64,000 nt of DNA, from assembly GCA_964572145.1 (NCBI GenBank), contig CAZNES010000011.1:8687-72686 (forward strand), in the 5' to 3' direction. This document shows positions 6,009-63,260 of the stretch, in pieces. Source of the stretch: an uncultured Syntrophobacteraceae bacterium. GTDB lineage: Bacteria > Desulfobacterota > Binatia > UBA9968. Numbering within the stretch: the stretch's first letter is position 1; every line of letters begins with the position of its first letter. The notes under the pieces are model-generated. The model was given only the letters and a program-made list of their open reading frames with translations, was not told the DNA's origin and searched no databases. The position numbers and the translations under genes were made by a program.

Positions 6009-7346
6009 ATGGCACACATAGTTCCCTTTCGTGGTGTTCTCTACAACCCGAAAAAAATTTCCGATCCTTCCAAGGTGATCGCGCCGCCTTACGACGTGAT
6101 TTCCTCGGAGGATCAAGAGAAGCTCTACCGCCGCTCGCCTTACAACGTCGTGCGGTTGATCCTAAATCAGGAGCCGGAGCCGTATGAAGTTGTCGCGCGG
6201 TTGTTCGAAGAGTGGCAGAAAGAAGGAGTCCTCATTCGCGACGAAATGCCGGCGATTTACTTTCTCACCCATCGTTACGCGCTGAAGGACGGAAAAGAAA
6301 AGGAGCGCAAGGGGTTCATCGCCCTGGCGCGGATCGAAGACTTTTCCAGCGGCGCGATCCGACCGCACGAGGCGACGCTCGCGGCGCCGAAGGAAGACCG
6401 GCTTAAGCTCATGCTCGCTTGCCACGCCAACTTGAGCCCGATCTTCGCGCTCTACTCCGAGCCGAAACAGCTCATCAATCGACTGATGGCGGAGCATGTG
6501 CGGGGAAAACCGCCGGACGTCGAGGTCAAAGAAGACAAAGGCGGGAGCTGCCGTCTCTGGCGCGTGACCGACGCCGAGCTCGTTCGCATGGCCCGTCAGC
6601 AGATGGAGCAGCCGCCGCTTTTGATCGCCGACGGCCATCACCGCTACGAGGCGGCGATGAACTATCGCGAGCACATGCGCCGGGAAAACCCCCGATTCAG
6701 CGGCCGCGAGGCGTTCAACTACGTCATGATGTATTTCGCCAACATGAAAGACGAGGGGGTGACGATTCTCCCGACGCACCGGCTGGTGCGCTCATTCCCA
6801 GCCATCGCTTTTCGCGAGCTCGAAGAATCGCTGATGCGCTATTTCTACATCGAGCCCTATCCCAAAAACGACGAGGGCCGGCGCTCGTTCTTGCGCGCGC
6901 TTCAGAGCGGAAGGAAAAAACACCGGCTCATCGGCGCATCTTTCAAGCGCGATCCGCGCTATTTGATTCTGCGGCTCAAGAACAAGAGGTTCATGCAGCG
7001 GCTCGCCGGCGACTTGAGCGCGCCGCTGCAAGAGCTGGACGTGAGCGTGCTGCACCGTCTCATTCTCGATCACATCCTGGGTCTCAAGCCCGAGGAGCAG
7101 GTCGCGGAAGGTGCGATCAGCTATTCGCAGGACGAAGAGAAAGTTTTACAGATGCTGGATAAGGAAGATTACCAGGCCGCGTTTATTTTAAATCCGCCCA
7201 AGGCGGAAGAGATCCTTGCTATCAGCGGCGCCGGCAAGACGATGCCGCAGAAGACGACCTATTTTTATCCGAAGCTCATCGACGGGCTGGTAATCAACAA
7301 ACTCGATGCGGAAGAACAGATAGAAGAGGGGCCAGCAGGCAGTTGA
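6009..7346 (+). CDS. DUF1015-family protein
   Basis: 445 aa. MAHIVPFRGVLYNP... with the length and conserved blocks typical of DUF1015. Confidence 0.7.
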   Translation: MAHIVPFRGVLYNPKKISDPSKVIAPPYDVISSEDQEKLYRRSPYNVVRLILNQEPEPYEVVARLFEEWQKEGVLIRDEMPAIYFLTHRYALKDGKEKERKGFIALARIEDFSSGAIRPHEATLAAPKEDRLKLMLACHANLSPIFALYSEPKQLINRLMAEHVRGKPPDVEVKEDKGGSCRLWRVTDAELVRMARQQMEQPPLLIADGHHRYEAAMNYREHMRRENPRFSGREAFNYVMMYFANMKDEGVTILPTHRLVRSFPAIAFRELEESLMRYFYIEPYPKNDEGRRSFLRALQSGRKKHRLIGASFKRDPRYLILRLKNKRFMQRLAGDLSAPLQELDVSVLHRLILDHILGLKPEEQVAEGAISYSQDEEKVLQMLDKEDYQAAFILNPPKAEEILAISGAGKTMPQKTTYFYPKLIDGLVINKLDAEEQIEEGPAGS

Positions 7347-7376
7347 AGTCTTAGACGGCCGGTATAAGATTATTGT

Positions 7377-7613
7377 ATGAGGTGCCGGGTCTGCCATTCT
7401 AAGATGGTAAAAAAGAAAATCACAGTTGATTTACGTGTTGGCGAAGACCTGCTCGTCGTCGAACAAGTCCCGGCAACCGTGTGCGAGCACTGTGGAGACA
7501 GAGTGTTTGCTCCCACGGTCGCTAAAAAACTCCAGGCTCTGGGCAGACGGCGCAAAAAGGCGCCGCGAACCCTGAGAGTGCCGGTCTTCTCCATGGATGA
7601 GGTCTCGCCGTAA
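7377..7613 (+). CDS. YgiT-type zinc-ribbon protein (MqsA N-domain-like)
   Basis: 78 aa. MRCRVCHS...VPATVCEHCGD: two CxxC pairs with the spacing of the YgiT-type zinc finger. Confidence 0.6.
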   Translation: MRCRVCHSKMVKKKITVDLRVGEDLLVVEQVPATVCEHCGDRVFAPTVAKKLQALGRRRKKAPRTLRVPVFSMDEVSP

Positions 7614-7652
7614 GATTCCGCTTCCCATCTCGTGCAACTGCCAAGGACTCAC

Positions 7653-7811
7653 ATGTGGTTGGACTACGACGAGAAGGTCGATGTTCTATACTTGCATTTT
7701 GAAGACCGACCAGGCTCAACACACAGCCAAATGCGGGATGACGGCGTCATCCTCGACTACAAGGGCCGCCGATTAGTAGGTGTCACCATCCTTGAGGCCT
7801 CCCAGCGATAA
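7653..7811 (+). CDS. DUF2283-family small protein
   Basis: The 52-aa ORF (shorter than the 60-aa track cutoff) MWLDYDEKVDVLYLHFEDRPGSTHSQMRDDGVILDYKGRRLVGVTILEASQR matches the DUF2283 pattern (YD.E.D.LYI...GVILDYD..G.LVGIEIL.AS.R). Confidence 0.65.
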   Translation: MWLDYDEKVDVLYLHFEDRPGSTHSQMRDDGVILDYKGRRLVGVTILEASQR

Positions 7812-7980
7812 GGAAGATTACCAGGCGGCGTTTATTTTAAATCCGACTCAGCCGGAAGAGATTATCGCCGTCACCGGCGCCGGCGAGAAGATGCCGCAGA
7901 AAACGACCTACTTCTATCCCAAGCTGATCTCTGGATTGGTGATCAACAAAATCGATCCGGCGGAAGAGATGCCGGAGTGA
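7807..7980 (+). pseudogene. diverged duplicate of the 3' end of the DUF1015 gene (gene fragment)
   Basis: KEDYQAAFILNPTQPEEIIAVTGAGEKMPQKTTYFYPKLISGLVINKIDPAEE parallels the C-terminus of the 6009-7346 product. The DNA at 7163-7330 versus 7809-7980 is roughly 80% identical. Confidence 0.8.
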
Positions 7981-8014: not shown

Positions 8015-9646
8015 TCAACGGCGAATTTCCAGCGGCAGGATTTTCCCTCGCGGGCTGACGTAGGGGATCTCGCGCTTGATTCGGAGCGTGCCGGCGTCTT
8101 GCCAGATCCGGCTCATGAAACGATTGCTCCACGGGCCGGCCGACAAACCCTCTTGCAGCCGAGCCAGCAGCTTGGCTTCGTCGACGCTTCCCACTTGCGG
8201 GTGAACCACCAGCGTCAAGCGAGTCTGTCCGTTCCTGTCCTCCTCCTCGACGAGCTGGTAATCGCCGGGGCCGCCGCCGAACTCGGAAGGAAAGACTCTT
8301 TCCACGAGATCGAAGAGATCGACGTAGAAATAGTTCATGCCCTCACTAGTAAACTTCTCGAAGCTCCGGATGTGGTGCAGATGCAGCGTGAGCCCGGCGT
8401 CTTCCAACTCACAGCCGCAATTTCTCTTTTCCAGCGTCGCGTAATCTCCATTCTCGACGTTGAGGAGCATCCGCGGAGCTTCGGCATAAAGGCTCGTGCA
8501 GAGAAGAGGATGGATCGGCGGGCCGGCGGCGGCTAAAGACATGGGCCGAGGAATGATCGCAAGCGCGTGCTGATTGACGTGGACTTCGTCCCGGTGGCGC
8601 GGCCGGGCGCAGCCGAATCCGGCCGTGACGCCGCCGCCGTAGCTATACCGTGAAGTGAAGCTCGCGCCTGCCCGTCGGATCGCCTCTTCCTTCGCTTCGG
8701 TGAAAGGCTCGCCGGCGACGTTGAACTTGGTCCCTTCGAGCGAGACTCCCATTTCCGACGCGGTGCGCGCGATGCGCGCCGCGCTGCTCGCAATAGTGAT
8801 GATGTAGCAATTTCTCTTTCCGCGCTTCTCTTCTTCTATCCAGCGAACAATCGACCCCATGTCCTCGACGTCGATAAAGCGCGGCATGGGAAAACCGGGA
8901 CCGTGCCGTTTGCCGGTGAGCACGACCAGACAGGTCGTGAGATAGTGCGCCATCGCATGGAGCCGGCTCAGCTCCGGACTCCGGCGCGCGAACCAGCGAT
9001 CGGTCGCTTTGCCGAGCCTGGCGTTGACCAGGAGATGGTGCACCGCGCTGCCGGGAAGAATCGCGTCGTAGATCGCGTGAGCATAGGAGAAAAGATCGTG
9101 CGCGGCGAAGAACACGCCGGTTCCGATCGTCCGTATGGCGAGCCAGTCCAAAGGGATGACCGAGCGCACGGGCCGGTTGCGCGTCCCGCTGCTCTGGATG
9201 GTGAATCCGACCGGCAGGTCCGCGCGCGCGAAATCCGCCGGCGTGACGCGGAAACATTCCCGGCCGCGAACGATTTCTTTCTTGCCCTTGAATTCGTCCG
9301 AGGTGAGATAAACCCCGTCCGCCGCGAGCTGCTCCAGAGTTTGCTCGATTCCCCGGCGGCGGACCTGAGTTTGAAGATCGGAAAAATCGCAGCCGGAGTT
9401 TTTGAGAAGCTTCAGGTAAGGGCTGGCCGGACGCTCGTAAATTTGCGTCCGCACCAAATCGAGAAATCTTTCGGACCTCGTCTCCAGAGCCCTTCCGACT
9501 TCCTGCTTGGCGCGGTGAACGGTAATGCGCTCGCGGAGAAACTCACCGACGGCGGCTGAGAGCGCAATTTTCCCTTTGACGTCGAAGTTCCTGAGACCGT
9601 TTTGCAATTCCCGATAGCGCCGGCTCAGCGCTTCCAGTCGAGTCAT
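8015..9646 (-). CDS. ANL-superfamily adenylate-forming enzyme (GH3 / F390-synthetase / PaaK-like)
   Basis: 543 aa. QSSGTRNRPVRSVIP resembles the GH3/PaaK phosphate-binding motif (SSGT..G.PK.IP). The length is typical of bacterial GH3-like proteins. Confidence 0.45.
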   Translation of the reverse strand: MTRLEALSRRYRELQNGLRNFDVKGKIALSAAVGEFLRERITVHRAKQEVGRALETRSERFLDLVRTQIYERPASPYLKLLKNSGCDFSDLQTQVRRRGIEQTLEQLAADGVYLTSDEFKGKKEIVRGRECFRVTPADFARADLPVGFTIQSSGTRNRPVRSVIPLDWLAIRTIGTGVFFAAHDLFSYAHAIYDAILPGSAVHHLLVNARLGKATDRWFARRSPELSRLHAMAHYLTTCLVVLTGKRHGPGFPMPRFIDVEDMGSIVRWIEEEKRGKRNCYIITIASSAARIARTASEMGVSLEGTKFNVAGEPFTEAKEEAIRRAGASFTSRYSYGGGVTAGFGCARPRHRDEVHVNQHALAIIPRPMSLAAAGPPIHPLLCTSLYAEAPRMLLNVENGDYATLEKRNCGCELEDAGLTLHLHHIRSFEKFTSEGMNYFYVDLFDLVERVFPSEFGGGPGDYQLVEEEDRNGQTRLTLVVHPQVGSVDEAKLLARLQEGLSAGPWSNRFMSRIWQDAGTLRIKREIPYVSPRGKILPLEIRR

Positions 9647-9701: not shown

Positions 9702-11084
9702 TCAGCGCGCGACCGGCGTGACGAATTCTCCGTCGCCCGGCTTCCCCACCACTTTCCCGTTTTCCATCACCACTTTGCCGCGGACGATAGTATAAATTGG
9801 CGCGCCTTTGACCTTGCGTCCGTGGTAAGGAGTCCAGCCGACTTTGGTGTAAGTCGTTTCATTGGTGATTGTCTCCTCGCGCTCCATGTCGACGATCGTG
9901 ATGTCGGCATCCGACCCGACCTGGATCACGCCTTTGCGCGGATAGACGCCGAAGATGCGCGCGGGATTGTACGAAGTGATGCGCACGAGCTGATCGAGCG
10001 TCAACTTTCCCTGGTTGACCGCGGTCAAAAATAATCTCAGGTAGTCTTGAATCTGGGGCTCGCCGCCAGGCGATTTCCACATGTCTTTCCAGCCGACGTC
10101 TTTTTCTTCCTTGGTGTGCGGCGCGTGGTCGGTGCCGACGACCTCGATTGTCCCATCCTTGATCGCCGTCCAGAGAGCCTCCATATGCTCGTCCGGCACC
10201 CAGAAGCCGAGACAATAAGGCCCCAACTTCTCCACGTTCTCCCAGGTCGCGAGGAAAAGCGCCCAGGGATTCACCTCACCGGTCACGGGCCTTCCTTCTT
10301 CTTTGGCGCGCCGGATCATTTCGATTCCACCAGGCGTGCTCATGTGAAGGATGTGGAGCTTGGTGCCGGTCGATTTTTGAAAACGGATCAGCGTCGCGAT
10401 CGCCGTGTCCCAGATGATGCCGTCGAAGTCGCGGTACGCTTTGCCGTACGCCTGGGGGCTGCGGTCGCCGCGCTCCCAGTAGCGCTGCTCGATCACGTCC
10501 ATCAAATCCTGATCGTGCGGATGGACCATGAGCGGCAGGCCGGTCTTCGCCACGGCTTCGAACGAGCGGAAAAGCTCGCCGTGATTGTGCAGCCCGATGC
10601 CCGGCATGTGCGGATAATCGCGGCCGGTGTCCCGCACCATGAAAATTTTAAACGCGAGGCAGCCTTCTTTGGCGAGTCCGGGAATCTGTTCCGGAACGGT
10701 TCCCGAAGGGTTGTGGTTGAAATCGACGATCGCCTTCTTTTTGTGATCTTCAATCAGGTTCCGATAACGCTCCACGGTCGTGGTCGGCGGATTGACGTTC
10801 GGCATGCCGATCGAGAGCGTCACGCCTCCCGCGGCGGCCGCCATCGTCGCGGTCGTCAAATCTTCCTTATGCGTGAAGCCGGGATCGCGGTGATGCGTAT
10901 GCGTGTCGATCAATCCCGGAATGACTTTCTTTCCTTTCGCGTCGATGACTTTACGCGCTTCTGGAAACGAGGGAGATTGGCCGAGCGCAACGATCTTGCC
11001 CCGGTTGATCGCAATATCGGCAGCGACAAAACCGCCGGGTGTCCATACGTCTCCGTTTTTTACGACGAGATCTACCCGATCCAT
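9702..11084 (-). CDS. cyclic amidohydrolase (dihydropyrimidinase / hydantoinase / allantoinase family)
   Basis: 460 aa. The metal-binding DTHTHH motif and the D-hydantoinase-like length and blocks. Confidence 0.75.
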   Translation of the reverse strand: MDRVDLVVKNGDVWTPGGFVAADIAINRGKIVALGQSPSFPEARKVIDAKGKKVIPGLIDTHTHHRDPGFTHKEDLTTATMAAAAGGVTLSIGMPNVNPPTTTVERYRNLIEDHKKKAIVDFNHNPSGTVPEQIPGLAKEGCLAFKIFMVRDTGRDYPHMPGIGLHNHGELFRSFEAVAKTGLPLMVHPHDQDLMDVIEQRYWERGDRSPQAYGKAYRDFDGIIWDTAIATLIRFQKSTGTKLHILHMSTPGGIEMIRRAKEEGRPVTGEVNPWALFLATWENVEKLGPYCLGFWVPDEHMEALWTAIKDGTIEVVGTDHAPHTKEEKDVGWKDMWKSPGGEPQIQDYLRLFLTAVNQGKLTLDQLVRITSYNPARIFGVYPRKGVIQVGSDADITIVDMEREETITNETTYTKVGWTPYHGRKVKGAPIYTIVRGKVVMENGKVVGKPGDGEFVTPVAR

Positions 11085-14089: not shown

Positions 14090-15082
14090 GTGGAAAAATT
14101 GCATTTAACGATTGCGTGCGGCGATTACGACCGGACCAAAGCGCTGCAAACGGGAGCGGTCCAACCGGAAGGCATACAGCTCAACTATCTTCCCCTGCAG
14201 GCGGAAGAGATCTTTTGGCGCATGAGCAATTTTAAGGAGTTCGACGCCTCCGAAATGTCGCTCTCGAATCACATCACGATGGTGAGCCGCGGCAACTCTC
14301 CGTTCGTCGCGATTCCGGTGTTTCCATCGCGTTTCTTCAGGCACTCCTGCGTCTTCATCAACACCGATTCCGGCATTAAGGGACCGCAGGATTTCAAAGG
14401 CAAAAAAATCGGCGCGCCGGAATACTCGATCACCGCGGCGGTGTGGATTCGCGGCTTTCTAGGCGACGACTACGGCGTGAAAGCAAGCGACATGCAGTGG
14501 TTCGTCGGCGGACAGGAAGAAACGGGCAGGAAGGAACGAGTGCGCCTGAGCCTTCCGCCCGAGATCAAAGTGAGCCCGATCGCCGACGACAAAACTCTTA
14601 ACGGTATGCTCGAGAGCGGCGAGATCGACGGCCTGATCTCCGCGCGCAGTCCTTCGTCGTTCGTCAAAGGCTCGCCCAAAGTCCGGCGTTTGTTTCCCAA
14701 CTACAAAGAAGTCGAGATGGATTACTACAAGCGCACCAAAATCTTTCCGATCATGCACGTGCTGATCATTCGGAAAGAAATCTACGATCGCAATCCTTGG
14801 GTAGCGCGAAGCCTCTACAAGGCCTTTTGCGAAGCCAAAGATCGCGCGATCCAGGCGATGCACGTGTCTAATACGTTAGCCTGCACCCTGCCATGGCAGT
14901 TTGCGGAGATGGAGCTGCTCAAATCTCTTTTCGGCGCCGACTGGTGGCCCTACGGCGTCGAGCTCAATCAAAATCTCCTGGAGACATTGATACGCTACAT
15001 GGGCGAGCAGGGCCTCATCGACAGGCCGGTCAAGCTGGAAGAACTGTTTGCACCGAGCATCTCCGGCGAGTTTAAAATCTAG
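14090..15082 (+). CDS. 4,5-dihydroxyphthalate decarboxylase (PhtD/Pht5)-family protein
   Basis: 330 aa. The N-terminal LTIACGDYDRTKAL...EIFWRM..FDASEMSLSNHI pattern is characteristic of the PhtD-like PBP-fold decarboxylase family. A paralog lies at 16987-17964. Confidence 0.55.
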   Translation: MEKLHLTIACGDYDRTKALQTGAVQPEGIQLNYLPLQAEEIFWRMSNFKEFDASEMSLSNHITMVSRGNSPFVAIPVFPSRFFRHSCVFINTDSGIKGPQDFKGKKIGAPEYSITAAVWIRGFLGDDYGVKASDMQWFVGGQEETGRKERVRLSLPPEIKVSPIADDKTLNGMLESGEIDGLISARSPSSFVKGSPKVRRLFPNYKEVEMDYYKRTKIFPIMHVLIIRKEIYDRNPWVARSLYKAFCEAKDRAIQAMHVSNTLACTLPWQFAEMELLKSLFGADWWPYGVELNQNLLETLIRYMGEQGLIDRPVKLEELFAPSISGEFKI

Positions 15083-16986: not shown

Positions 16987-17964
16987 TTACGTATCTAAAG
17001 TCGCAGGCGCGAAGAGATCTTCGACAGCCGGCATTTTCTCCATCAGCCCCTGATCCAGAGAGTAGCCCATAAACCGCTCGATATTAGCGCGGTTCTTCCC
17101 AACGCCGTACGGCCACGGGTCGTCGCCCAGCAAATGTCTCTCCTCCTCGAAGAGATGGCGCCCCCAGGCGAGACGCGACCAGTTCGGATCGTCGTAATAG
17201 CGCCGGCAAACTTCCTTGGCCTTCTCGAATGCGTCCATCATACCCCGCGCGAGCCACGGATTTTGTTTGAGCACTTCATCCTTGAACGCCACCACGTGCA
17301 TGATGGGAAAAAATCTGTTCTTGCGAAAATAGTTTAACTCTTCCTGCTTGGCGTTGGAAAAGAGCCGGCGGATCTTCCCCGAGCCTCGCAACACTTCTTT
17401 CGGCGGGTGCGGCATGAACAGCGCGTCGATCTCGCCCGCTTCCAGCAAGCTCCCGATCTTTTTCCCCGCCGGGACGAGCCGAATCTTCACGCCCTCCTGA
17501 GGCTTGAACGGAACCGTCTCTTCCTTGGCGACGACCCACTCGATCTTGCGCCAGTCCACGTCGTATTCGGACTGCAAATCTCCCTTGGCCAGAACGGAAA
17601 GCGTCGTTTGATACGTGCTGAGTCCGACTTTACGGTCGATGAGATCTTTCGGAGAGTCGATGCCGGCCCCGGCGCGCACCCACATTTGCGACATGCTGAA
17701 AAGGCGGCGCGGAAAAACCGGGATAGCGGTAAAAGGCATGCTGCGGCTCTTGGCCATGAGATAGGAGGAAAGGGAAAGCTCGCAGATATCGAACTCCCCT
17801 TTCTGGAGCATTCTTTCATGGCGATCGACGCCGTGTTTTAACGGCTCCGATTGCCCGACCAGCAGCACGTTCAAATCCGCGCCATCGAGTGAAACAGCGC
17901 CGTCGAAAAAAGGAAAATGGCGGTCGTAATGAGACAGCGCCATCTTGAGCTTGAGCTTGGCCAT
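16987..17964 (-). CDS. 4,5-dihydroxyphthalate decarboxylase (PhtD)-family protein, paralog 2
   Basis: 325 aa. LKMALSHYDRHFPFFDG...FDICELSLSSYL parallels the 14090-15082 product. Confidence 0.55.
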   Translation of the reverse strand: MAKLKLKMALSHYDRHFPFFDGAVSLDGADLNVLLVGQSEPLKHGVDRHERMLQKGEFDICELSLSSYLMAKSRSMPFTAIPVFPRRLFSMSQMWVRAGAGIDSPKDLIDRKVGLSTYQTTLSVLAKGDLQSEYDVDWRKIEWVVAKEETVPFKPQEGVKIRLVPAGKKIGSLLEAGEIDALFMPHPPKEVLRGSGKIRRLFSNAKQEELNYFRKNRFFPIMHVVAFKDEVLKQNPWLARGMMDAFEKAKEVCRRYYDDPNWSRLAWGRHLFEEERHLLGDDPWPYGVGKNRANIERFMGYSLDQGLMEKMPAVEDLFAPATLDT

Positions 17965-33675: not shown

Positions 33676-34788
33676 ATGCTGGCAACCAGAATCGTCCAGA
33701 AAGAGGGCACTTTTTACTTCGCCGCCGTGAAGGCGAGCGAATTGCTGGACCGGGTGCGTTTCACCAGCCGCTACTACTTCGAGGGCGAGGAGATCGCGCC
33801 GGACGACACCGGGGACGACGAGGTCGCGCGCTTCATCTCCGGCATCGAAAAGACCGAAAGGTCGTTCCAACGCGTCCTGAACCAACGCAAGGTAAAACAG
33901 ATCGTCAACTTTTACGAAACGGCCGTGAGCCAGCCTTTGATCCCCGGCACGATCCTTTTGTTCACCGAGGAGACCTTGGGCTTTCGCCGGCAGGACGGCT
34001 CCGACACCATCGGATTTGTAAGCGAACCGAAGGGCAAGTTTTTGATCATCGACGGACAGCACCGGCTGGCGGCGCTCCATTTCTTTAGCCAGAAACATCC
34101 CGAGACGGCCAAGCAGCTCGACGTCCCGTGCGTTCTGTTCGACGGCAAAAGCGCGGACTTCGCCACCGAGATGTTTGTCATCATCAACTCGACGCACACG
34201 CGGATCAACAAGTCGCACCTGGTCGATCTCTACGAGCGGGTCTCGTGGGAAACGCCGGAGAAAAAACTCGCGGCAAAAGTGGTCAACCTGCTCTACGAAG
34301 AGAGCGACTCGCCGCTCCGCTACCGCATCAACCGGCTGGGCGGACGCAGCCGCCAGGAAAAATGGATCTTACAGTCGGAGCTTTTCAACGAGATCTACAA
34401 AGTGGTGCTCAAGAACCGCAAATTTTTCGACGAGCATTTCCAGTTCCGCTCCGACTACGTGTACGCGCTGGTCCGGGATTATTTCAAGGCGGTGCGCGAC
34501 GTGATGCATTCGGTCTGGGGCGACAACGAGCGCTACATGTTCACGCGCGACGTTACGCTCAAAGCGCTCATCCGCGTCTTCGGCGACTTGATCCGCAACC
34601 GGAACGTCTTCCGCGCCTGGGACGAGAAGCGCGACCCGCGGATATTCATGGGCGTGATACGGCCGTGGCCCGAGCTGGCGCGGGAATTTCGCGCCGAGGG
34701 ATTCTACGAGCGCTTTCCCGCCAAGGGACAGGTCGAGCGCGTCCGGCGCATTCATTTGAAGTTGAGCCAAGCGATCGGCTACGCGTGA
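33676..34788 (+). CDS. DGQHR-domain protein (DndB-like, ParB/Srx fold)
   Basis: 370 aa. The LIIDGQHRLAALHF motif is diagnostic of the DGQHR/DndB family. No dnd or ssp genes are adjacent. Confidence 0.7.
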   Translation: MLATRIVQKEGTFYFAAVKASELLDRVRFTSRYYFEGEEIAPDDTGDDEVARFISGIEKTERSFQRVLNQRKVKQIVNFYETAVSQPLIPGTILLFTEETLGFRRQDGSDTIGFVSEPKGKFLIIDGQHRLAALHFFSQKHPETAKQLDVPCVLFDGKSADFATEMFVIINSTHTRINKSHLVDLYERVSWETPEKKLAAKVVNLLYEESDSPLRYRINRLGGRSRQEKWILQSELFNEIYKVVLKNRKFFDEHFQFRSDYVYALVRDYFKAVRDVMHSVWGDNERYMFTRDVTLKALIRVFGDLIRNRNVFRAWDEKRDPRIFMGVIRPWPELAREFRAEGFYERFPAKGQVERVRRIHLKLSQAIGYA

Positions 34789-35167
34789 GGCATGTTACAG
34801 CCGCGCCCCAACTCGAAATAAGGTTTCATGATCGGTCCCTCCTAACCACGCTTGGCTCGCGCTGAATTAGCGTTTGATCCTGCCCGCCGTCTTGGAGTAT
34901 GAATTGCAGCATCTTTCCAATTGAGCGTTGAGCACAGTTCCTATGGCTGATCCAAACGCGCGCCGGCCAAGACAGGCTGCGGGTGGTTAGTGAAATAGGA
35001 CGCTCCATCCGGCGGTGTTTGGCGACCAGCAGGTTGTTGACAAGTTGGAGTAGCTTACGGATATTGCAACCGATTCGGATCTGGGCAGTGGAGCCGTGTT
35101 AGGAGATAGGCGGACCGGCATTTGTCGCCTGGAAAAGCGGGTCACTTAATAGCCGTTACCAAGTGCC

Positions 35168-35884
35168 GTGAAGAATCAATACGTCGGCGATATCAACGAT
35201 TTCCGAAAGTACAGTCTGATCCGGGTTCTTACCGGGGAAGGCGAACTCCGGTCGGGCGTCTGTTGGATGTTGACTGCCAATGACGGGCGCACTGATGGCC
35301 GGTTCCTTCGCTATCTGCAACAGCCGGATCACTGGAGGAGCCTCGACAAGAAAACATTTGAGGCCATGCGCCGAATCGTCCATGACCATAGGCGACGCGA
35401 CGTATCCTTGATAGAAGGCTCCGGTGTCCTTCCGAATGCGAAGTTCTTTTCTCCAATCCTTGACGACGACCGCGAACGCCGAGCCTTATATTTTGCGAAC
35501 GCCAAGTCGGCGCTTTGTGGAACACAACTCTTGTTTTTCGATCCTGACAACGGGCTCGAAGTAAAGTCAGTACCGCTCGGGCGAAAACGTTCTAGAAAGT
35601 ACCTCTACTGGTCTGAACTCCCTACGTTTTCTGAGGCCGGTTGTTTCATTCTGATTTACCAGCACTTTCCACGCGAGGATCGTGCTTCCTACATTCAACG
35701 GCGTGTTGTTGAAATTTGGCAGGCTTTGGGCGATGTCTCTGTTTACTCCTTTCGAACGGCCTACGTTGGCTTTTTCCTCGCGGCGCAGTCTCCGTCTATG
35801 CGTCGTTTCTTTCGAGAGCGCGTCAAAATCCTTGAACGCCGTTGGAATGGACAGTTTCAGGTGCAATACCATGGTAACGGCTAA
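35168..35884 (+). CDS. hypothetical protein, possible PD-(D/E)xK-like nuclease partner of the DGQHR protein
   Basis: 238 aa with a GTG start. No recognised family. LLFFDPDNGLEVKS can be read as PD...ExK. By eye its GC is lower than that of the flanking core genes. Confidence 0.4.
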   Translation: MKNQYVGDINDFRKYSLIRVLTGEGELRSGVCWMLTANDGRTDGRFLRYLQQPDHWRSLDKKTFEAMRRIVHDHRRRDVSLIEGSGVLPNAKFFSPILDDDRERRALYFANAKSALCGTQLLFFDPDNGLEVKSVPLGRKRSRKYLYWSELPTFSEAGCFILIYQHFPREDRASYIQRRVVEIWQALGDVSVYSFRTAYVGFFLAAQSPSMRRFFRERVKILERRWNGQFQVQYHGNG

Positions 35885-36027
35885 CAACACGCCCCACCCA
35901 GACGCGCGCGAAGCGCCGTGCCAATTCTCAGTGCCGTCGGTGCGCGCCGGTGGGCGTGGACGTTAACCGGCAGAGTCAACGTGGCGCAACCTATGGATCG
36001 GGCGCGCACTGAAAGGCGGAAGCGGTG

Positions 36028-36159
36028 ATGAAGATCGACATCGACAAACTCAGCGAAGAAGAACTGATCGATCTGAACAACAACGAGGAAGATAAGAGAG
36101 CGGGACTCTTATTCTCGACGTGCAGCGTGGCACCGGCAAGCAGCGCTGTTATTGCTTAG
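36028..36159 (+). pseudogene. truncated duplicate of the 5' end of the 36548-36868 gene
   Basis: MKIDIDKLSEEELIDLNNNEEDKRAG... compared with MKIDIDKLSEDELIDLNNRIVV... at 36548. The DNA identity over the first ~60 nt is very high before the sequences diverge. Confidence 0.6.
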
Positions 36160-36254
36160 TATCGGGCGCTGAAGCACGGCGCCGGACACATTTCAAAAGA
36201 TCGCGCATGCAAGGTAGAATAAGATGGTTGTTAAGTTGTCCGAATAATCACAGG

Positions 36255-36551
36255 ATGGCCGATATGAATTCGAAAAAAAAATCTACGAAAAAACAATTTT
36301 CCGAAGAAGAAATCGATAAAATTGTAGAATCGCAAGTTGAGAAGGATTCAGCTTGGGGAAAACCCATTAAAGTCCGCAGAGCAAAAACGGCTGCTTTGTC
36401 TCTTCCGGCGAAGTTGGCTGCCCGTGCTGTTTTTCTGGCGAGATTACACAGCGAGAAAAACGTCGAGGAATGGTTGGCGCGCATTATTAAAGAGCGCGTG
36501 GAGCTGGAAGAGGTCGCTTTCAGTCAAGCAAAGCGCGCTATGTTGCGATGA
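36255..36551 (+). CDS. small CopG/ribbon-helix-helix-like protein (putative antitoxin-like)
   Basis: 98 aa in AT-rich DNA. The C-terminal strand-helix-helix pattern (LSLPAKLAARAVFLARLH...EEWLARIIKER). Its stop overlaps the next ATG (ATGA). Confidence 0.4.
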   Translation: MADMNSKKKSTKKQFSEEEIDKIVESQVEKDSAWGKPIKVRRAKTAALSLPAKLAARAVFLARLHSEKNVEEWLARIIKERVELEEVAFSQAKRAMLR

Positions 36552-36868
36552 AAATCGACATCGACAAGCTCAGCGAAGATGAACTGATCGATCTGAACAA
36601 CAGGATCGTGGTGCGCCTGCGGTTCTTGAGTCAGATGCGCGCGCACTCGCAGATGCTGGACTTCAAGATCGGCGATCGCGTCGCTTTTCAGCCGGAAGGG
36701 AGTCCGCGCCTGGTTGGAATGCTCACTCGCTACAATCGGAAAACGGTCACGGTCATCACCGACAGCGGACAGCACTGGAACGTGGCGCCGGGGCTTCTAC
36801 GCAAGGCAGCGTCTCCCGATCACGCGGAGACCGGCCACGCGAAGGTAGTTCGACTGAGAAAGGAATGA
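36548..36868 (+). CDS. hypothetical 106-aa protein (coiled N-terminus plus small beta domain), translationally coupled to the upstream RHH-like gene
   Basis: ORF with an ATGA overlap to the upstream gene. Its N-terminus is duplicated at 36028. Confidence 0.4.
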   Translation: MKIDIDKLSEDELIDLNNRIVVRLRFLSQMRAHSQMLDFKIGDRVAFQPEGSPRLVGMLTRYNRKTVTVITDSGQHWNVAPGLLRKAASPDHAETGHAKVVRLRKE

Positions 36869-36937
36869 TCGAGGCCATGAGCGAGCTTCCTTAGCGCTTA
36901 CCTGGACAACGATAGATCAGGGCGGTATTATCCTGCT

Positions 36938-37168
36938 ATGAGCAAGACAGCAGACGATCTCCTGACTAAGGCTAAGCGACTTTCCACTACCGAACGGGCC
37001 GACCTCGCCGCCGCGTTGCTCGCCAGCCTGGATGGTGAGCCTGAGGGGGACGTTGAAGCCGCATGGGCCGCCGAGATTCAGCGGCGTGCCGAGCGTGTGA
37101 GGTCTGGCGAAGCGAAAGGCCGACTTTGGTCCGAGGTTCGCAAACGCCTTGAGCGTCGGAGAGGATGA
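36938..37168 (+). CDS. addiction-module antitoxin (putative addiction module component family, ParD-like role)
   Basis: 76 aa. TTERADLAAALLASLDG...AWAAEIQRRAERV is the typical small acidic antitoxin pattern. Its stop overlaps the toxin ATG. Confidence 0.6.
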   Translation: MSKTADDLLTKAKRLSTTERADLAAALLASLDGEPEGDVEAAWAAEIQRRAERVRSGEAKGRLWSEVRKRLERRRG

Positions 37169-37482
37169 GCCCACGCATTATCGTCCTCGACGAGGCGGAG
37201 GACGAACTGATCGAAGCGCAAAAGTGGTACGAGACTCAGCGCTCCGGTCTTGGCCAGGAATTCAGACATGCGATCGACGAGGCGATGGAACGCCTTCTGA
37301 ATGCGCCGCTTGCTGCTTCGCCAATCGTCAACGTTCCCACCTCCATCGGCGCGCGAAGAATTCTGGTCAAACGGTTCCCATATTCCATTGTTTTCATCCA
37401 TCATGACGAGGATCTCTGGGTCATTGCGTTTGCCCATCACCGCCGACGGCCGAGCTATTGGCGCGAACGGCTAAAGCCGTAG
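37165..37482 (+). CDS. type II toxin, RelE/ParE family
   Basis: 105 aa. The ParE-like hallmarks ...ILVKRFPYSIVFIHHDEDLWVIAFAHHRRRP. Confidence 0.7.
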   Translation: MSPRIIVLDEAEDELIEAQKWYETQRSGLGQEFRHAIDEAMERLLNAPLAASPIVNVPTSIGARRILVKRFPYSIVFIHHDEDLWVIAFAHHRRRPSYWRERLKP

Positions 37483-46563: not shown

Positions 46564-46782
46564 TCAAACCCGGCGAAACGGGAGGGTTCCGTTTTTAGAT
46601 ATCAGACGCCAAGTGTCGTCCGCATCATAGCTGACACGGACGACTTCGCCCGGTTCCAGATGAAATGATCGGTACTGGTTGAGAGGCGTTCCGGTGACGC
46701 GGCAAATTACCGACAGGATGGGAAAATTATGGCTGACGACGAGGAGCGTTTCGTCCGGACCATGGCGCCCACCGCGCCCCAA
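46564..46782 (-). pseudogene. diverged duplicate of the 3' end of the histidine-phosphatase gene (fragment)
   Basis: ETLLVVSHNFPILSVICRVTGTPLNQYRSFHLEPGEVVRVSYDADDTWRLISKNGTLPFRRV parallels the C-terminus of the 47706-48320 product. The DNA is roughly 78% identical. Confidence 0.8.
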
Positions 46783-46974
46783 AAAATCCCGATGCGCTGC
46801 TGCCGGCGCGGCAGCGTGCGCACCGCCATCGCGATGACCAGCGCGTTATCACCGGCCAACGTCAAATCGATGACAACAATCTTAAGCCAGCTCAGAATGA
46901 ATTCCCAATGCATTGAAAAGCTGTTCCTTCAGCAGACCCCGTTTGAAATGAAGAAATTCGGACGGGTGTTTTAG

Positions 46975-47559
46975 TCAGTGCTTTTTCCCGATATCCACGA
47001 GAAACGAGACCAAGCGGGCCGGCTTCGTTGCTCCTGAACGTTTGGCGATCCGGATCTCTATCTCATTCAACCTCGACGCCACGCTCTGCTTCAAGATCGT
47101 AAGCTCTTCTTCCCTCGCAGCTAGAAGGAGATCTCTCTGTTTGATCTCGGAAAGCAGTTTTTCCAGCTCTCCACTGATCCTTTTCTCCAGCTCCTGCAGC
47201 TGGCTTTCTTTTGCGCATAAAGCGGCATACTTTTCATCCATCTTTTTCTCCCACCCGTCCAGATCCACCGCGCTCTCCTCTTCCAGGGCGATAAAGCTCT
47301 CGGGAAGATTTTGGCCGCCGCTTGTCGCGCTCACCTGCCTCTGCGCTTCGGCAATCTGTGAAAGAATATTCGACTCCACTACGCGAGCGCGGCCCGTCTC
47401 CTGTTTGAACTGCGACTCTATCTGTCCCAAGCGTAAAGCAACGTTTTCAACGAGCGCTTCTACTCTTTGCATCCGATTCTGAACGCCGTCGGAGATTTTT
47501 CCGGACTTTTTTTTACGCCCCTTCATGATGGCCTCCTCGTCTGCATGGACTTGGCCCAA
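46975..47559 (-). CDS. hypothetical coiled-coil protein
   Basis: 194 aa of heptad-rich sequence (LQELEKRISGELEKLLSEIKQRDLLLAAREEEL). No family recognised. It lies between the phosphatase gene and its duplicated 3' fragment. Confidence 0.45.
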   Translation of the reverse strand: MGQVHADEEAIMKGRKKKSGKISDGVQNRMQRVEALVENVALRLGQIESQFKQETGRARVVESNILSQIAEAQRQVSATSGGQNLPESFIALEEESAVDLDGWEKKMDEKYAALCAKESQLQELEKRISGELEKLLSEIKQRDLLLAAREEELTILKQSVASRLNEIEIRIAKRSGATKPARLVSFLVDIGKKH

Positions 47560-47705
47560 TTCAGCTGCAGGTCTTGTACCCGCGGCCAGTGGACCCTACG
47601 CAAAAACGGGAGGAGCATAGTCAAAGCCCGATTGAAATGCAAGGCGAGCGCAAGCCGCAATCAAACGGCCCTGCAAAGAAAGAAGTCAGGAACTGGAAAG
47701 CCGGG

Positions 47706-48320
47706 TCATTCCCGGCGCAGCGGGAGCTTGCCGTTCTCACGCATCACTCGCCATTCATCATCCCCGTTGTAGCTCAAGCGAACAACTCCGCCCGGCGCTA
47801 GATGATAGGTTCGGTACTGGTTAAGCGGAGTCCCGGTGATGTGGCAGATAACCGCCAGGATAGGAAAGTTGTGACTGACGACAACGAGGGTCTCTTCCGC
47901 ACGATGGCGTCGGACGATCCGGCGCATGCCGTCCCATGCCCGCTGCTCGACGTCGATCAATCTCTCGCCGCCGGGAATATCGGCGTCCGCGGGCGTCTCT
48001 CGCCACCGGCGAAGAAAATCGGGACGGGTCGCCTGAATCTCCGCAAAGGTGAGGCCCTCGATCTCGCCGTGATCGAGCTCGCGCAGGCTTTCTTCGATGG
48101 TGACGGCGAGGTTATGGAAGCGGCCGACGGCGCCGGCGGTCTGGAGCGCCCGTTTGAGCTGGCTCGAATAAATCGCGTCGATTTTCTCGCGGCTCAAGTC
48201 CAGCGCCGCGGCCTCCGCCTGCCTCAGCCCGACTTCGTTGAGCTCCAGGTCGGTCGATCCCTGGCATCTCTGCGCCAGATTCCAGTCGGTGGCCCCGTGC
48301 CGCAGCAAAAAAATCCGCAT
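47706..48320 (-). CDS. histidine-phosphatase (phosphoglycerate-mutase-like / CobC-like) family protein
   Basis: MRIFLLRHGATDWN is the RHG catalytic motif. 204 aa. Confidence 0.8.
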   Translation of the reverse strand: MRIFLLRHGATDWNLAQRCQGSTDLELNEVGLRQAEAAALDLSREKIDAIYSSQLKRALQTAGAVGRFHNLAVTIEESLRELDHGEIEGLTFAEIQATRPDFLRRWRETPADADIPGGERLIDVEQRAWDGMRRIVRRHRAEETLVVVSHNFPILAVICHITGTPLNQYRTYHLAPGGVVRLSYNGDDEWRVMRENGKLPLRRE

Positions 48321-56289: not shown

Positions 56290-56470
56290 GGGCGCCTTCT
56301 CCCTTCGCGCCTCTTCCTTCGTTTGCTTCGTGTCAGCCTGAGGCTGATCAGCCTCTCTTTTTGGCCGATCCTTCGTGGTCGAAAAGTTTATCACCACAAA
56401 GAGCACGAAGGTCACGAAGTTTTGAACGCCTCGCGCCAAGACGCAAAGAATGCATTCCTCATCTACAGTG
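56290..56470. repeat. MITE-like repeat, copy A (palindromic core TCAGCCTGAGGCTGATCAGCCTC with CTTCGTG/CACGAAG arms)
   Basis: About 90 nt are near-identical to 63040-63130. The arm motifs are shared with 58862-59183. Confidence 0.6.
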
Positions 56471-63029: not shown

Positions 63030-63260
63030 TTTTCTTCCTTCGAGACCTTCGTGTCAGCCTGAGGCTGATCAGCCTCTCTTTTTGGCTGATCCTTCGTGGT
63101 CAAAATCTTCTCACCACGAAGAGCACGAAGTTTGGATCATTCATCGGACCAAGATCGCAGCGTTTCCTCGCGATTCTTTTTCCTTGGCGTCCTTTGCGTC
63201 TTTGCGCGAGAGAACGCATTTCGGTCCTTCTCTGTTATCGCGCCAAGACGCCAAGCTCGC
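63030..63260. repeat. MITE-like repeat, copy C
   Basis: 63040-63130 is near-identical to 56317-56410. The downstream TTGGCGTCCTTTGCGTCTTTGCGCG resembles copy B. Confidence 0.6.

Follow-up and report, generated by a model that had tools for sequence, protein, structure and literature searches.

A duplicated DUF1015 gene end around toxin-antitoxin remnants in an uncultured Binatia bacterium: a probable scar of one-sided recombination

Some genomic islands and prophages encode an integrase, target the 3' end of a tRNA, tmRNA or protein gene and bring along a substitute for the gene end that they displace. Homology-facilitated illegitimate recombination on DNA uptake is said to have been described in 2002 both by de Vries and Wackernagel, in Acinetobacter, and by Prudhomme et al., in Streptococcus pneumoniae. 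Insertion with long target duplication was reportedly first described by Nobusato et al. in 2000. This last pattern was set out for restriction-modification complexes by Furuta et al. 2010 (PMC2853133), who credited the first report to work of the same group, their reference 37. Here we analysed a duplicated gene end in a stretch of 64,000 nucleotides (the window) from an uncultured Syntrophobacteraceae bacterium that GTDB places in the Binatia (assembly GCA_964572145.1, contig CAZNES010000011.1, positions 8,687 to 72,686 of the forward strand). Within the window, the 3' end of a gene encoding a DUF1015 family protein occurs twice, and two small genes of toxin-antitoxin (TA) type lie between the copies. 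Most probably, the locus is a scar left by DNA that came from a related genome, and not an element that inserted itself. On balance we think it probable, though far from certain, that this scar arose by homology-anchored import of a gene end plus cassette from a relative and was closed by an illegitimate join.

The complete DUF1015 gene (6009-7346, plus strand) encodes 445 amino acids (aa) and matches Pfam PF06245 (E 2.6e-87). Full-length homologues with up to 91-93% identity are present in Binatia, and an exact look-up of the protein itself gave no recorded identical entry. Nucleotides 7158-7321 of this gene (copy A) are repeated at 7807-7970 (copy B) with 82% identity over 164 nucleotides (nt) and no gaps, in agreement with an earlier reading of the window, made from the letters alone (the sequence-only reading), which had claimed a duplication at about 80%. 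The protein tails of both copies are also as that reading wrote them, and of its repeat coordinates only the start of the second copy has to be corrected, from 7809 to 7807; the stop codon of the DUF2283 gene upstream (TAA, 7809-7811) falls within the first bases of copy B. When copy A was compared with position 7807, 135 of its 164 bases matched, against a window-wide background of 41 +/- 6 and a best unrelated position of 70. The longest exact match between the copies is 20 nt, and the identical 20-nt block GATAAGGAAGATTACCAGGC opens both of them (7158-7177 and 7807-7826). Copy B consists of 57 DUF1015 codons and a stop codon without the 5' part of the gene, its frame being open as far as the stop at 7978-7980, and the tails are told apart by the peptides AEEILAISGAGK (specific to copy A) and EEIIAVTGAGEK (specific to copy B). 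The insert between the copies measures 460 bp, has a G+C content of 0.50-0.57, slightly below that of its flanks, and contains only two open reading frames (ORFs; 78 and 59 aa), which are co-oriented and were matched by Pfam as the zinc ribbon and DUF2283 proteins already proposed (Table 1). The locus is not an assembly artefact, because copy A, insert and copy B are laid out in the same way on L004, an independent JGI contig that is 99.78% identical over 3186 nt (about 7 differences). An assembly chimera was ruled out by this layout, by the same geometry in the related loci L021, L037 and L058/L059 and by the 20-nt length of the longest exact match between copies.

The differences between the two copies are mostly synonymous, with a synonymous divergence (dS) of 0.65, a nonsynonymous divergence (dN) of 0.125 and a dN/dS of 0.19, and true orthologous tails of different genomes give dN/dS values of 0.04-0.19. 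Because the differences concentrate at synonymous sites, the copies appear to have diverged as working gene ends in separate genomes, and therefore one copy was probably imported rather than copied in place. The argument of the sequence-only reading against a recent local tandem duplication was thus sustained by divergence in the range of orthologous tails. The nearest relatives of copy A are the tails of the closest genomes (90% nt identity to L016; 47/50 aa to P0003). The closest genome with both flanks, L016, is 93% identical in nucleotides over DUF1015, its homology to the window ending at 7321 and resuming at 9712. Mismatches to L016 rise from 2.5% at 6700-7100 to 10.5% at 7101-7321 (identity falling from 97.5% to 89.5%), similarity is lost after 7321, and other mosaic patches occur in the gene, for which no donor was sampled. 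The drop in identity at about 7100 may mark a homologous crossover. A-type tails are found in the closest relatives (L016, L001 and L002), which lack the 543-aa gene described below, and a B-type tail is found in L021, which is equally close in the N-terminal part of the protein; judged from these sequences, tails have evidently been exchanged among close relatives.

We also found that the slot between the DUF1015 gene (plus strand) and a convergent amidohydrolase gene (minus strand) is a hypervariable hotspot in related Binatia loci (designated by L numbers). The slot is empty in L002, L010, L014 and L018, holds only a gene for a 543-aa protein in L003, L013, L017 and L020, and holds a GDSL lipase gene in L001. 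A DUF4258 toxin gene followed by a zinc-ribbon gene, and nothing else, occupies it in about 12 loci (L005, L012 and about 10 metagenome contigs). In L021 the order is DUF1015 tail, DUF4258, zinc ribbon, DUF2283, second tail and amidohydrolase, and the tails are 87% identical. The order is the same in L037 (tails 91% identical), in which the toxin gene is disrupted by an insertion, and L032 has a second tail as in L037 on a contig that starts after the first tail. In L058/L059 the DUF1015 tail is followed by an unnamed gene, DUF2283, a second tail (280 nt), DUF4258, zinc ribbon and amidohydrolase, with tails 86% identical; L034 is an undisturbed relative of L058. Only residual tail fragments are seen in L039, L048 and L062. 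At the other flank of the slot, L011 has an intact amidohydrolase gene, then MazE-like and PIN genes, and then a 28-codon fragment of the amidohydrolase 3' end.

The check proposed by the sequence-only reading, a comparison with the syntenic locus, was successful in that relatives with an empty site were found. In L003 and L020 the 543-aa gene begins within about 20 nt after DUF1015, and copy B, the 543-aa gene, the amidohydrolase gene and the transporter genes of the window form one colinear block with these undisturbed genomes; therefore copy B holds the ancestral position of the DUF1015 end. Short proteins annotated as "DUF1015 family" were considered as many further independent tail fragments and rejected: the three that were checked on long ENA contigs (P0164, P0201 and P0191) are ordinary DUF1015 genes split by frameshifts, many other such matches are cut off by contig ends, and the fragment count was dropped. 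In L065, L066 and L067 (ENA ERZ250395xx), DUF1015 is called as 2-4 consecutive short ORFs, most likely through long-read frameshift errors, and split calls of this kind yield spurious small "DUF1015 family" proteins in the protein database.

These neighbourhoods bear on which copy arrived. In the mirror polarity, the resident genome already had copy A, the zinc ribbon and DUF2283, and the incoming DNA, which had its anchor on the amidohydrolase side, consisted of copy B and the 543-aa gene. This would suit the A-type tails of the closest relatives L016, L001 and L002, none of which has the 543-aa gene, and the B-type tails of L003, which carries it; moreover, at 77% identity the 543-aa proteins of the window and L020 are closer than expected from the DUF1015 distances. 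However, L021 has the identical DUF2283/tail joint without the 543-aa gene, so the fragment is independent of that gene. No imported tract is visible at the amidohydrolase end, where (from 9712 onward) the window already has 96% identity to L016, and the nucleotide identity of copy B to L003 and L020 (78-81%) is not above that to L016 (84%). We regard this polarity as improbable. The 543-aa protein (8015-9646, minus strand) evolves faster than its neighbours, with 68-77% identity where DUF1015 has 82-84%, and an attempt to derive polarity from the distances of its gene was set aside as not decisive, the gene being simply fast-evolving.

The pattern recurs twice more in the window, as the sequence-only reading had stated. 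In the second case, 46563-46767 matches 47705-47909 with 73% identity over 205 nt and no gaps. The sequence concerned is the 3' end of a His_Phos_1 gene (minus strand; 72% over the last 66 codons), and the copies give a dS of 1.14, a dN of 0.20 and a dN/dS of 0.17. The leftover end is fused to the first 50 or so codons of a TerC gene, and from this sequence the breakpoint in TerC appears to be an arbitrary end in a passenger gene and not the end of an element. In the third case, it is the 5' end of a 106-aa gene that is duplicated (36027-36082 and 36547-36602, 95% identity over 56 nt). The 106-aa gene and the inserted 95-aa gene before it look like a coupled pair of TA type, with no Pfam match. 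Both cases are probably scars of the same process as the DUF1015 locus.

A different origin would be duplication in place, in which the cassette entered by insertion with long target duplication, the two gene ends were at first identical, and later allelic exchange overwrote one of them, most likely the working copy A. The pattern is known for restriction-modification gene pairs, with direct target repeats of 45 bp to >400 bp and no mobility genes (PMC2853133), and DUF1015 is visibly mosaic relative to L016. A-type tails (L016, L001 and L002) and B-type tails (L021 and P0002) occur among genomes that are about 92% identical elsewhere in the gene, and therefore tail replacement by homologous exchange clearly happens. 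However, published repeats are more alike mutually than to the empty site, whereas the copies here are as diverged as orthologues, and none of the sampled insertions has near-identical ends (82%, 87%, 91% and 86% in the slot; 73% and 95% elsewhere in the window). An imported fragment end is also the better fit for the second case, whose joint lies in a truncated TerC. Duplication in place is the alternative that we take most seriously, and we still consider it unlikely.

The joints themselves also point to an illegitimate closure. Five nucleotides, GATAA, are common to the natural end of DUF2283 (...CAG AGA TAA; L057, L039 and L021) and to DUF1015 codons D384-K385 (GAT AAG). In the window and in L021, DUF2283 and the DUF1015 tail are fused via this common GATAA, directly on the DUF2283 stop codon. 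The tail starts at codon 384 in these two loci, at about codon 350 in L058, L037 and L032, in which the second tail begins about 35 codons earlier behind a spacer of 20-30 nt, and further 3' in L039 and L062, some of these starts possibly being secondary deletions.

We scanned about 46 ORFs of the window against Pfam, including nearly all those of at least 150 aa, and found no integrase, resolvase or transposase among them, so that the search for a recombinase which the sequence-only reading had suggested came back empty for these ORFs. Nor was a recombinase found in the related loci L021, L037 and L058, in which all ORFs of the slot are accounted for. At the borders of the insert there are no meaningful inverted repeats, either attC-like or flanking, and within it there is no tRNA, Rfam match or terminator. 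An integron cassette was rejected because the borders lack attC-like repeats and the scanned ORFs include no integrase, and a diversity-generating retroelement was rejected because the 29 mismatches are spread over all four bases in each copy and no reverse transcriptase is encoded among the scanned ORFs.

These results bear most directly on the model of the sequence-only reading, that an element had integrated into the gene's 3' end and brought a replacement end, the logic of tRNA islands applied to a protein gene. Its geometry, the ancestral position of copy B and a foreign origin have stood, and the self-integration mechanism has not. In its fullest form, a degraded or trans-mobilised integrative element would have recombined site-specifically at a core in the DUF1015 3' end. 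In its geometry the locus corresponds exactly to attL and attR with replacement of the gene end, and the 20-nt identical block at the start of both copies and the occurrence of the same joint in the diverged L021 also speak for such an element. However, the 20-nt block simply reflects the conserved DKEDYQA codons, the joint positions vary by contig, and no integrase, serine recombinase or transposase was found among the scanned ORFs of the window or in the slots of L021, L037 and L058. The coding sequence of DUF2283 runs into the repeat and leaves no room for arm sites. The tRNA-island analogy is further contradicted by the microhomology joint on the DUF2283 stop, by the varying codon at which the tail begins and by the end of the second case within a truncated TerC gene. 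A recombinase, a constant crossover core and discrete ends with arms were all looked for and none was found, and for this reason the locus does not qualify as an integrase-borne island; we hold a site-specific origin to be highly improbable.

Based on these observations, the import of a gene end plus cassette might have proceeded as follows. DNA from a related Binatia genome, consisting of the 3' part of the donor's DUF1015 gene and the small TA genes behind it, would have entered the cell. One of its ends would have been fixed by homologous recombination inside DUF1015, probably near 7100, and the other, for which no homologous partner existed, would have been joined illegitimately, via GATAA, at codon 384 of the resident gene. 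A linear fragment could have taken this route by homology-facilitated illegitimate recombination, and a single crossover by a circularised fragment would be equivalent. In the product, imported copy A would form the end of the working gene; behind it would come the cargo and then, as the dead copy B, the last 57 codons of the resident gene. Decay of the cargo would have come afterwards, the DUF4258 toxin gene being deleted and the zinc-ribbon antitoxin left, and the upstream partner of DUF2283 being lost. Window and L021 differ at a dS of about 0.8-0.9 in DUF1015, zinc ribbon and DUF2283, yet have an identical joint; because the joint is common to this diverged locus, the event either predates the window genome or spread by later homologous exchange.

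Several observations weigh against this account. No near-identical pair of genomes before and after the event was found, L016 being only 93% identical and having a different slot content, and because of this we infer the polarity of donor and recipient rather than observe it. The gene is mosaic in several places, of which the increase in mismatches at about 7100 is one; 6009-6250, for instance, is 13% diverged as well. In the sampled genomes, nothing closer to copy B than 84% (nt) was found. DUF2283 stands directly before a DUF1015 tail or fragment in most loci with a complete DUF2283, which is more regular than random illegitimate joins, and this adjacency could be explained by shared ancestry of one or two joints. 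Finally, copy B and the L021 fragment give a dN/dS of 0.08, though both are supposedly dead.

The last point raises the possibility that copy B is a maintained small gene, expressed from GTG 7780 or TTG 7789 as a selected mimic of the DUF1015 C-terminus that is tied to the cassette. Its frame is open to the natural stop, the divergence from the L021 fragment (dN/dS 0.08, dS 0.82) equals that of neighbouring real genes, the 53 nt over the joint are the best conserved between window and L021, and gene callers report it as a gene (P0144 and P0145). However, the equivalent fragment is frameshifted in L037 and L032, two separate contigs, and is cut to 20-33 codons in L039, L048 and L062; the L021 fragment alters the glycine of a GLV motif that is present in every other compared tail. 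These frameshifts, truncations and the glycine change argue for decay of the fragment. Neither a ribosome-binding site nor a promoter was detected for copy B. Overwriting of dead fragments through later homologous exchange with working tails is a simpler explanation of the low dN/dS than selection, and of all the explanations considered here a maintained gene seems to us the least probable. The fragment would in addition serve as a left homology arm when the slot content, for example the 543-aa gene, is swapped. The conserved stretch across the DUF2283/tail joint (7777-7829 against L021 1403-1455) contains one mismatch in 53 nt between loci that are otherwise about 80% identical. It is the longest conserved stretch in the 600-nt cassette and may reflect recent exchange or constraint at the nucleotide level.

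It is conceivable, though we would give the idea little weight, that small TA modules in Binatia travel without any recombinase, each bringing along the 3' end of its upstream core gene, and that this gene end serves as a portable homology arm directing the module to the same slot in other genomes. Purifying selection would in that case preserve, at least temporarily, the old end that was displaced, either as a small ORF or as a landing pad for the next exchange, and three scars in 64 kb could mean that the process is unusually frequent in this lineage.

The cargo belongs to families that occur in TA pairs, as had been proposed, since in relatives the zinc ribbon accompanies DUF4258 and DUF2283 accompanies an unnamed gene of 93-101 aa. 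A 100-aa DUF4258 gene lies between the DUF1015 stop and the zinc-ribbon start in L021, L022, L005 and L012, and zinc-ribbon homologues with 57-87% identity directly follow DUF4258 in about 30 loci. DUF4258 is a toxin family of the RelE/ParE superfamily, and DUF4258-MqsA fusions have been reported (PMC11980606). Adjacent toxin and antitoxin genes, as seen in L005, L012, L021, L022 and about 25 further loci, are not present in the window, where the zinc ribbon stands alone. Since the window has only a 30-nt spacer at the place of the toxin, the zinc-ribbon gene is predicted to be the orphan antitoxin of a DUF4258 toxin. The spacer, 7347-7376, reads as a toxin-deletion scar, and L011 has a comparable spacer without a toxin. 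The insert of the window is therefore not an intact cassette, having decayed through deletion of the DUF4258 gene. In L057 and L058, DUF2283 follows and overlaps the unnamed 93-101-aa gene as a second two-gene module, and this partner is missing in the window. DUF2283 keeps 86-92% aa identity across lineages in which DUF1015 is only 61% identical, and the divergence of the zinc ribbon is about that of DUF1015. Because the identity of DUF2283 far exceeds that of DUF1015 across lineages, DUF2283 has probably moved between lineages more recently.

Further observations were made on these small genes. The stop codon of the zinc ribbon (TAA, 7611-7613) is in frame with DUF2283, so that one stop alone lies between the two ORFs; this arrangement is not conserved in L021, where a second stop is present. 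An insertion of about 190 nt, with the short repeated motif CGCAGCAAGCTG at its borders, divides the DUF4258 toxin gene of L037 (290-490); it looks like inactivation of the toxin by a miniature inverted-repeat transposable element (MITE). In L011 (7760-12290; RIFCSPLOWO2_12_FULL_60_19), about 4.4 kb of DNA with a repeated sequence at its borders interrupts the DUF2283 gene and contains a helix-turn-helix (HTH) and DDE_3 transposase remnant as well as a 769-aa ORF that resembles a family-A DNA polymerase and has a 3'-5' exonuclease domain. For the DUF2283 module, a fixed right end (...CGAGCC in L057, L039 and L058) was considered and rejected, the motif being a DUF4258 remnant (codons Y-E-P) in L057 and L039 and a 6-nt coincidence in L058. 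The mention of DUF2283 in PMC4755241 (FseA) concerns a different, larger protein and was not used; the label may be a mistake for DUF2285.

Table 1. Positions of the duplicated gene ends and associated features in the window
Feature	Position	Strand	Basis
Intact DUF1015 gene, left flank of variable slot	6009..7346	+	PF06245
Copy A, working DUF1015 3' end	7158..7346	+	Repeat proper 7158-7321, then 25 nt unique tail and stop codon
30-nt spacer at DUF4258 toxin position of relatives	7347..7376	+	Comparison with L021, L022, L005, L012
YgiT/MqsA-type zinc-ribbon protein, 78 aa, CxxC...CxxC	7377..7613	+	Weak MqsA_antitoxin match, E 0.001
DUF2283 gene, 59 aa (GTG 7632) or 51 aa (ATG 7656)	7632..7811	+	PF10049, full domain, E 2e-12
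Joint of insert and copy B	7807..7811	+	GATAA comparison of window, L021, L057, L039
Copy B, leftover DUF1015 3' end	7807..7980	+	Repeat alignment; colinearity with empty-site genomes
Convergent 543-aa gene, optional slot occupant	8015..9646	-	No Pfam domain; directly after DUF1015 in L003, L013, L017, L020
Amidohydrolase gene, conserved right flank of slot	9702..11084	-	Synteny with relatives
DndB/GmrSD_N-like gene	33676..34788		Part of defence/TA cluster
238-aa gene, family not assigned	35168..35884		Part of defence/TA cluster
Third case, leftover 5' end (19 codons) of 106-aa gene	36027..36082	+	Repeat alignment
Third case, inserted 95-aa gene (36264-36551) and intact 106-aa gene (36548-36868)	36264..36868	+	ATGA stop/start overlap
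Unstab_antitox and ParE pair	36938..37482		Part of defence/TA cluster
Second case, leftover His_Phos_1 3' end (46564-46782) joined to truncated TerC 5' fragment (46707-46913)	46564..46913	-	Pfam matches for both
Second case, cargo, 194-aa coiled-coil-like ORF, family not assigned	46975..47559	-	ORF analysis
Second case, intact His_Phos_1 gene	47706..48320	-	Pfam E 1.2e-58; 3' end 47705-47909 is the newer copy

The window is ordinary chromosome, with genes for enolase, purD, purH, alanine racemase, mreBCD, PBP2, rodA, pepA and folE, and the best homologues are in Candidatus Binatia metagenome-assembled genomes. A small defence/TA cluster (33676-37482) lies beside the third case. Elsewhere, two inverted paralogous genes at 14090-15082 (plus strand) and 16987-17964 (minus strand) encode proteins of 330 and 325 aa that are about 35-38% identical and have no Pfam match, with an LpxA-like acyltransferase gene between them. 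An intergenic direct repeat of about 105 nt (56310-56415 and 63030-63135, 6.7 kb apart, about 93% identity) contains inverted motifs of the type CTTCGTG...CACGAAG and may be an element resembling repetitive extragenic palindromes or MITEs, or a small RNA.

Of the patterns described so far, insertion with long target duplication comes closest to the locus. In both, a small addiction-type module that lacks transposase and integrase lies between direct repeats of a sequence present only once in genomes with an empty site; the repeats vary in length from tens to hundreds of bp, and those in the published cases frequently overlap an adjacent gene at its 3' end (PMC2853133). The geometry is characterised by repeats of >30 bp, a single-copy empty site and the lack of mobility genes, and the locus shows each of these, with a repeat of 164 nt and empty-site genomes L003, L020 and L002. 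Unlike the published repeats, which are nearly identical, those described here range from 73 to 95% identity, the DUF1015 pair having 82% and a dS of 0.65, and the differences in the two longer pairs of the window are mainly synonymous. The cargo consists of TA remnants and not of restriction-modification genes, and the host belongs to an uncultivated Binatia lineage.

In its mechanism, the locus appears to work most like homology-facilitated illegitimate recombination. Here too one end of the foreign DNA would be anchored in homology and the other at a microhomology of a few bases, GATAA being present at the joint, and the foreign end seems arbitrary, lying at GATAA in the DUF1015 locus and in the truncated TerC in the second case. 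What is known of that process comes from transformation in the laboratory, in which recipient DNA is usually lost, whereas here it is read from natural scars, and the illegitimate joint lies inside the anchor gene and leaves a duplicated gene end. Integrase-borne islands share with the locus the order of intact gene, insert and old end and a replacement end that has diverged from the old one. They differ from it in that no recombinase was found here among the scanned ORFs, the insert is only 460 bp, the crossover position is not constant and the joint lies on a stop codon with microhomology. The cargo resembles the type II TA module of DUF4258 (PF14076) and an MqsA-like protein, the zinc ribbon corresponding to the MqsA-like partner that follows DUF4258 in relatives (PMC11980606). 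Unlike that module, the window has no toxin gene, and therefore the module cannot act as a toxin-antitoxin pair; its protein is an N-terminal zinc ribbon only (78 aa) with no HTH domain.

In conclusion, our analysis suggests that accessory, addiction-type modules can enter between conserved chromosomal genes without a mobility enzyme and leave a dead copy of a gene end behind. The main interest lies in the recurrence of the pattern: the 64 kb of the window contain three scars, and across Binatia this one slot has many. The window also illustrates the decay of toxin-antitoxin modules, in which toxins are gone and antitoxin-like genes are retained. Such scars are easily misannotated as small "DUF1015 family" genes, and they can serve to trace past one-sided recombination events in bacteria that have not been cultivated. 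With regard to the closest described pattern, diverged repeats with a synonymous-site signature suggest that at least some "long target duplication" repeats were imported with their cargo and were not copied at the target.

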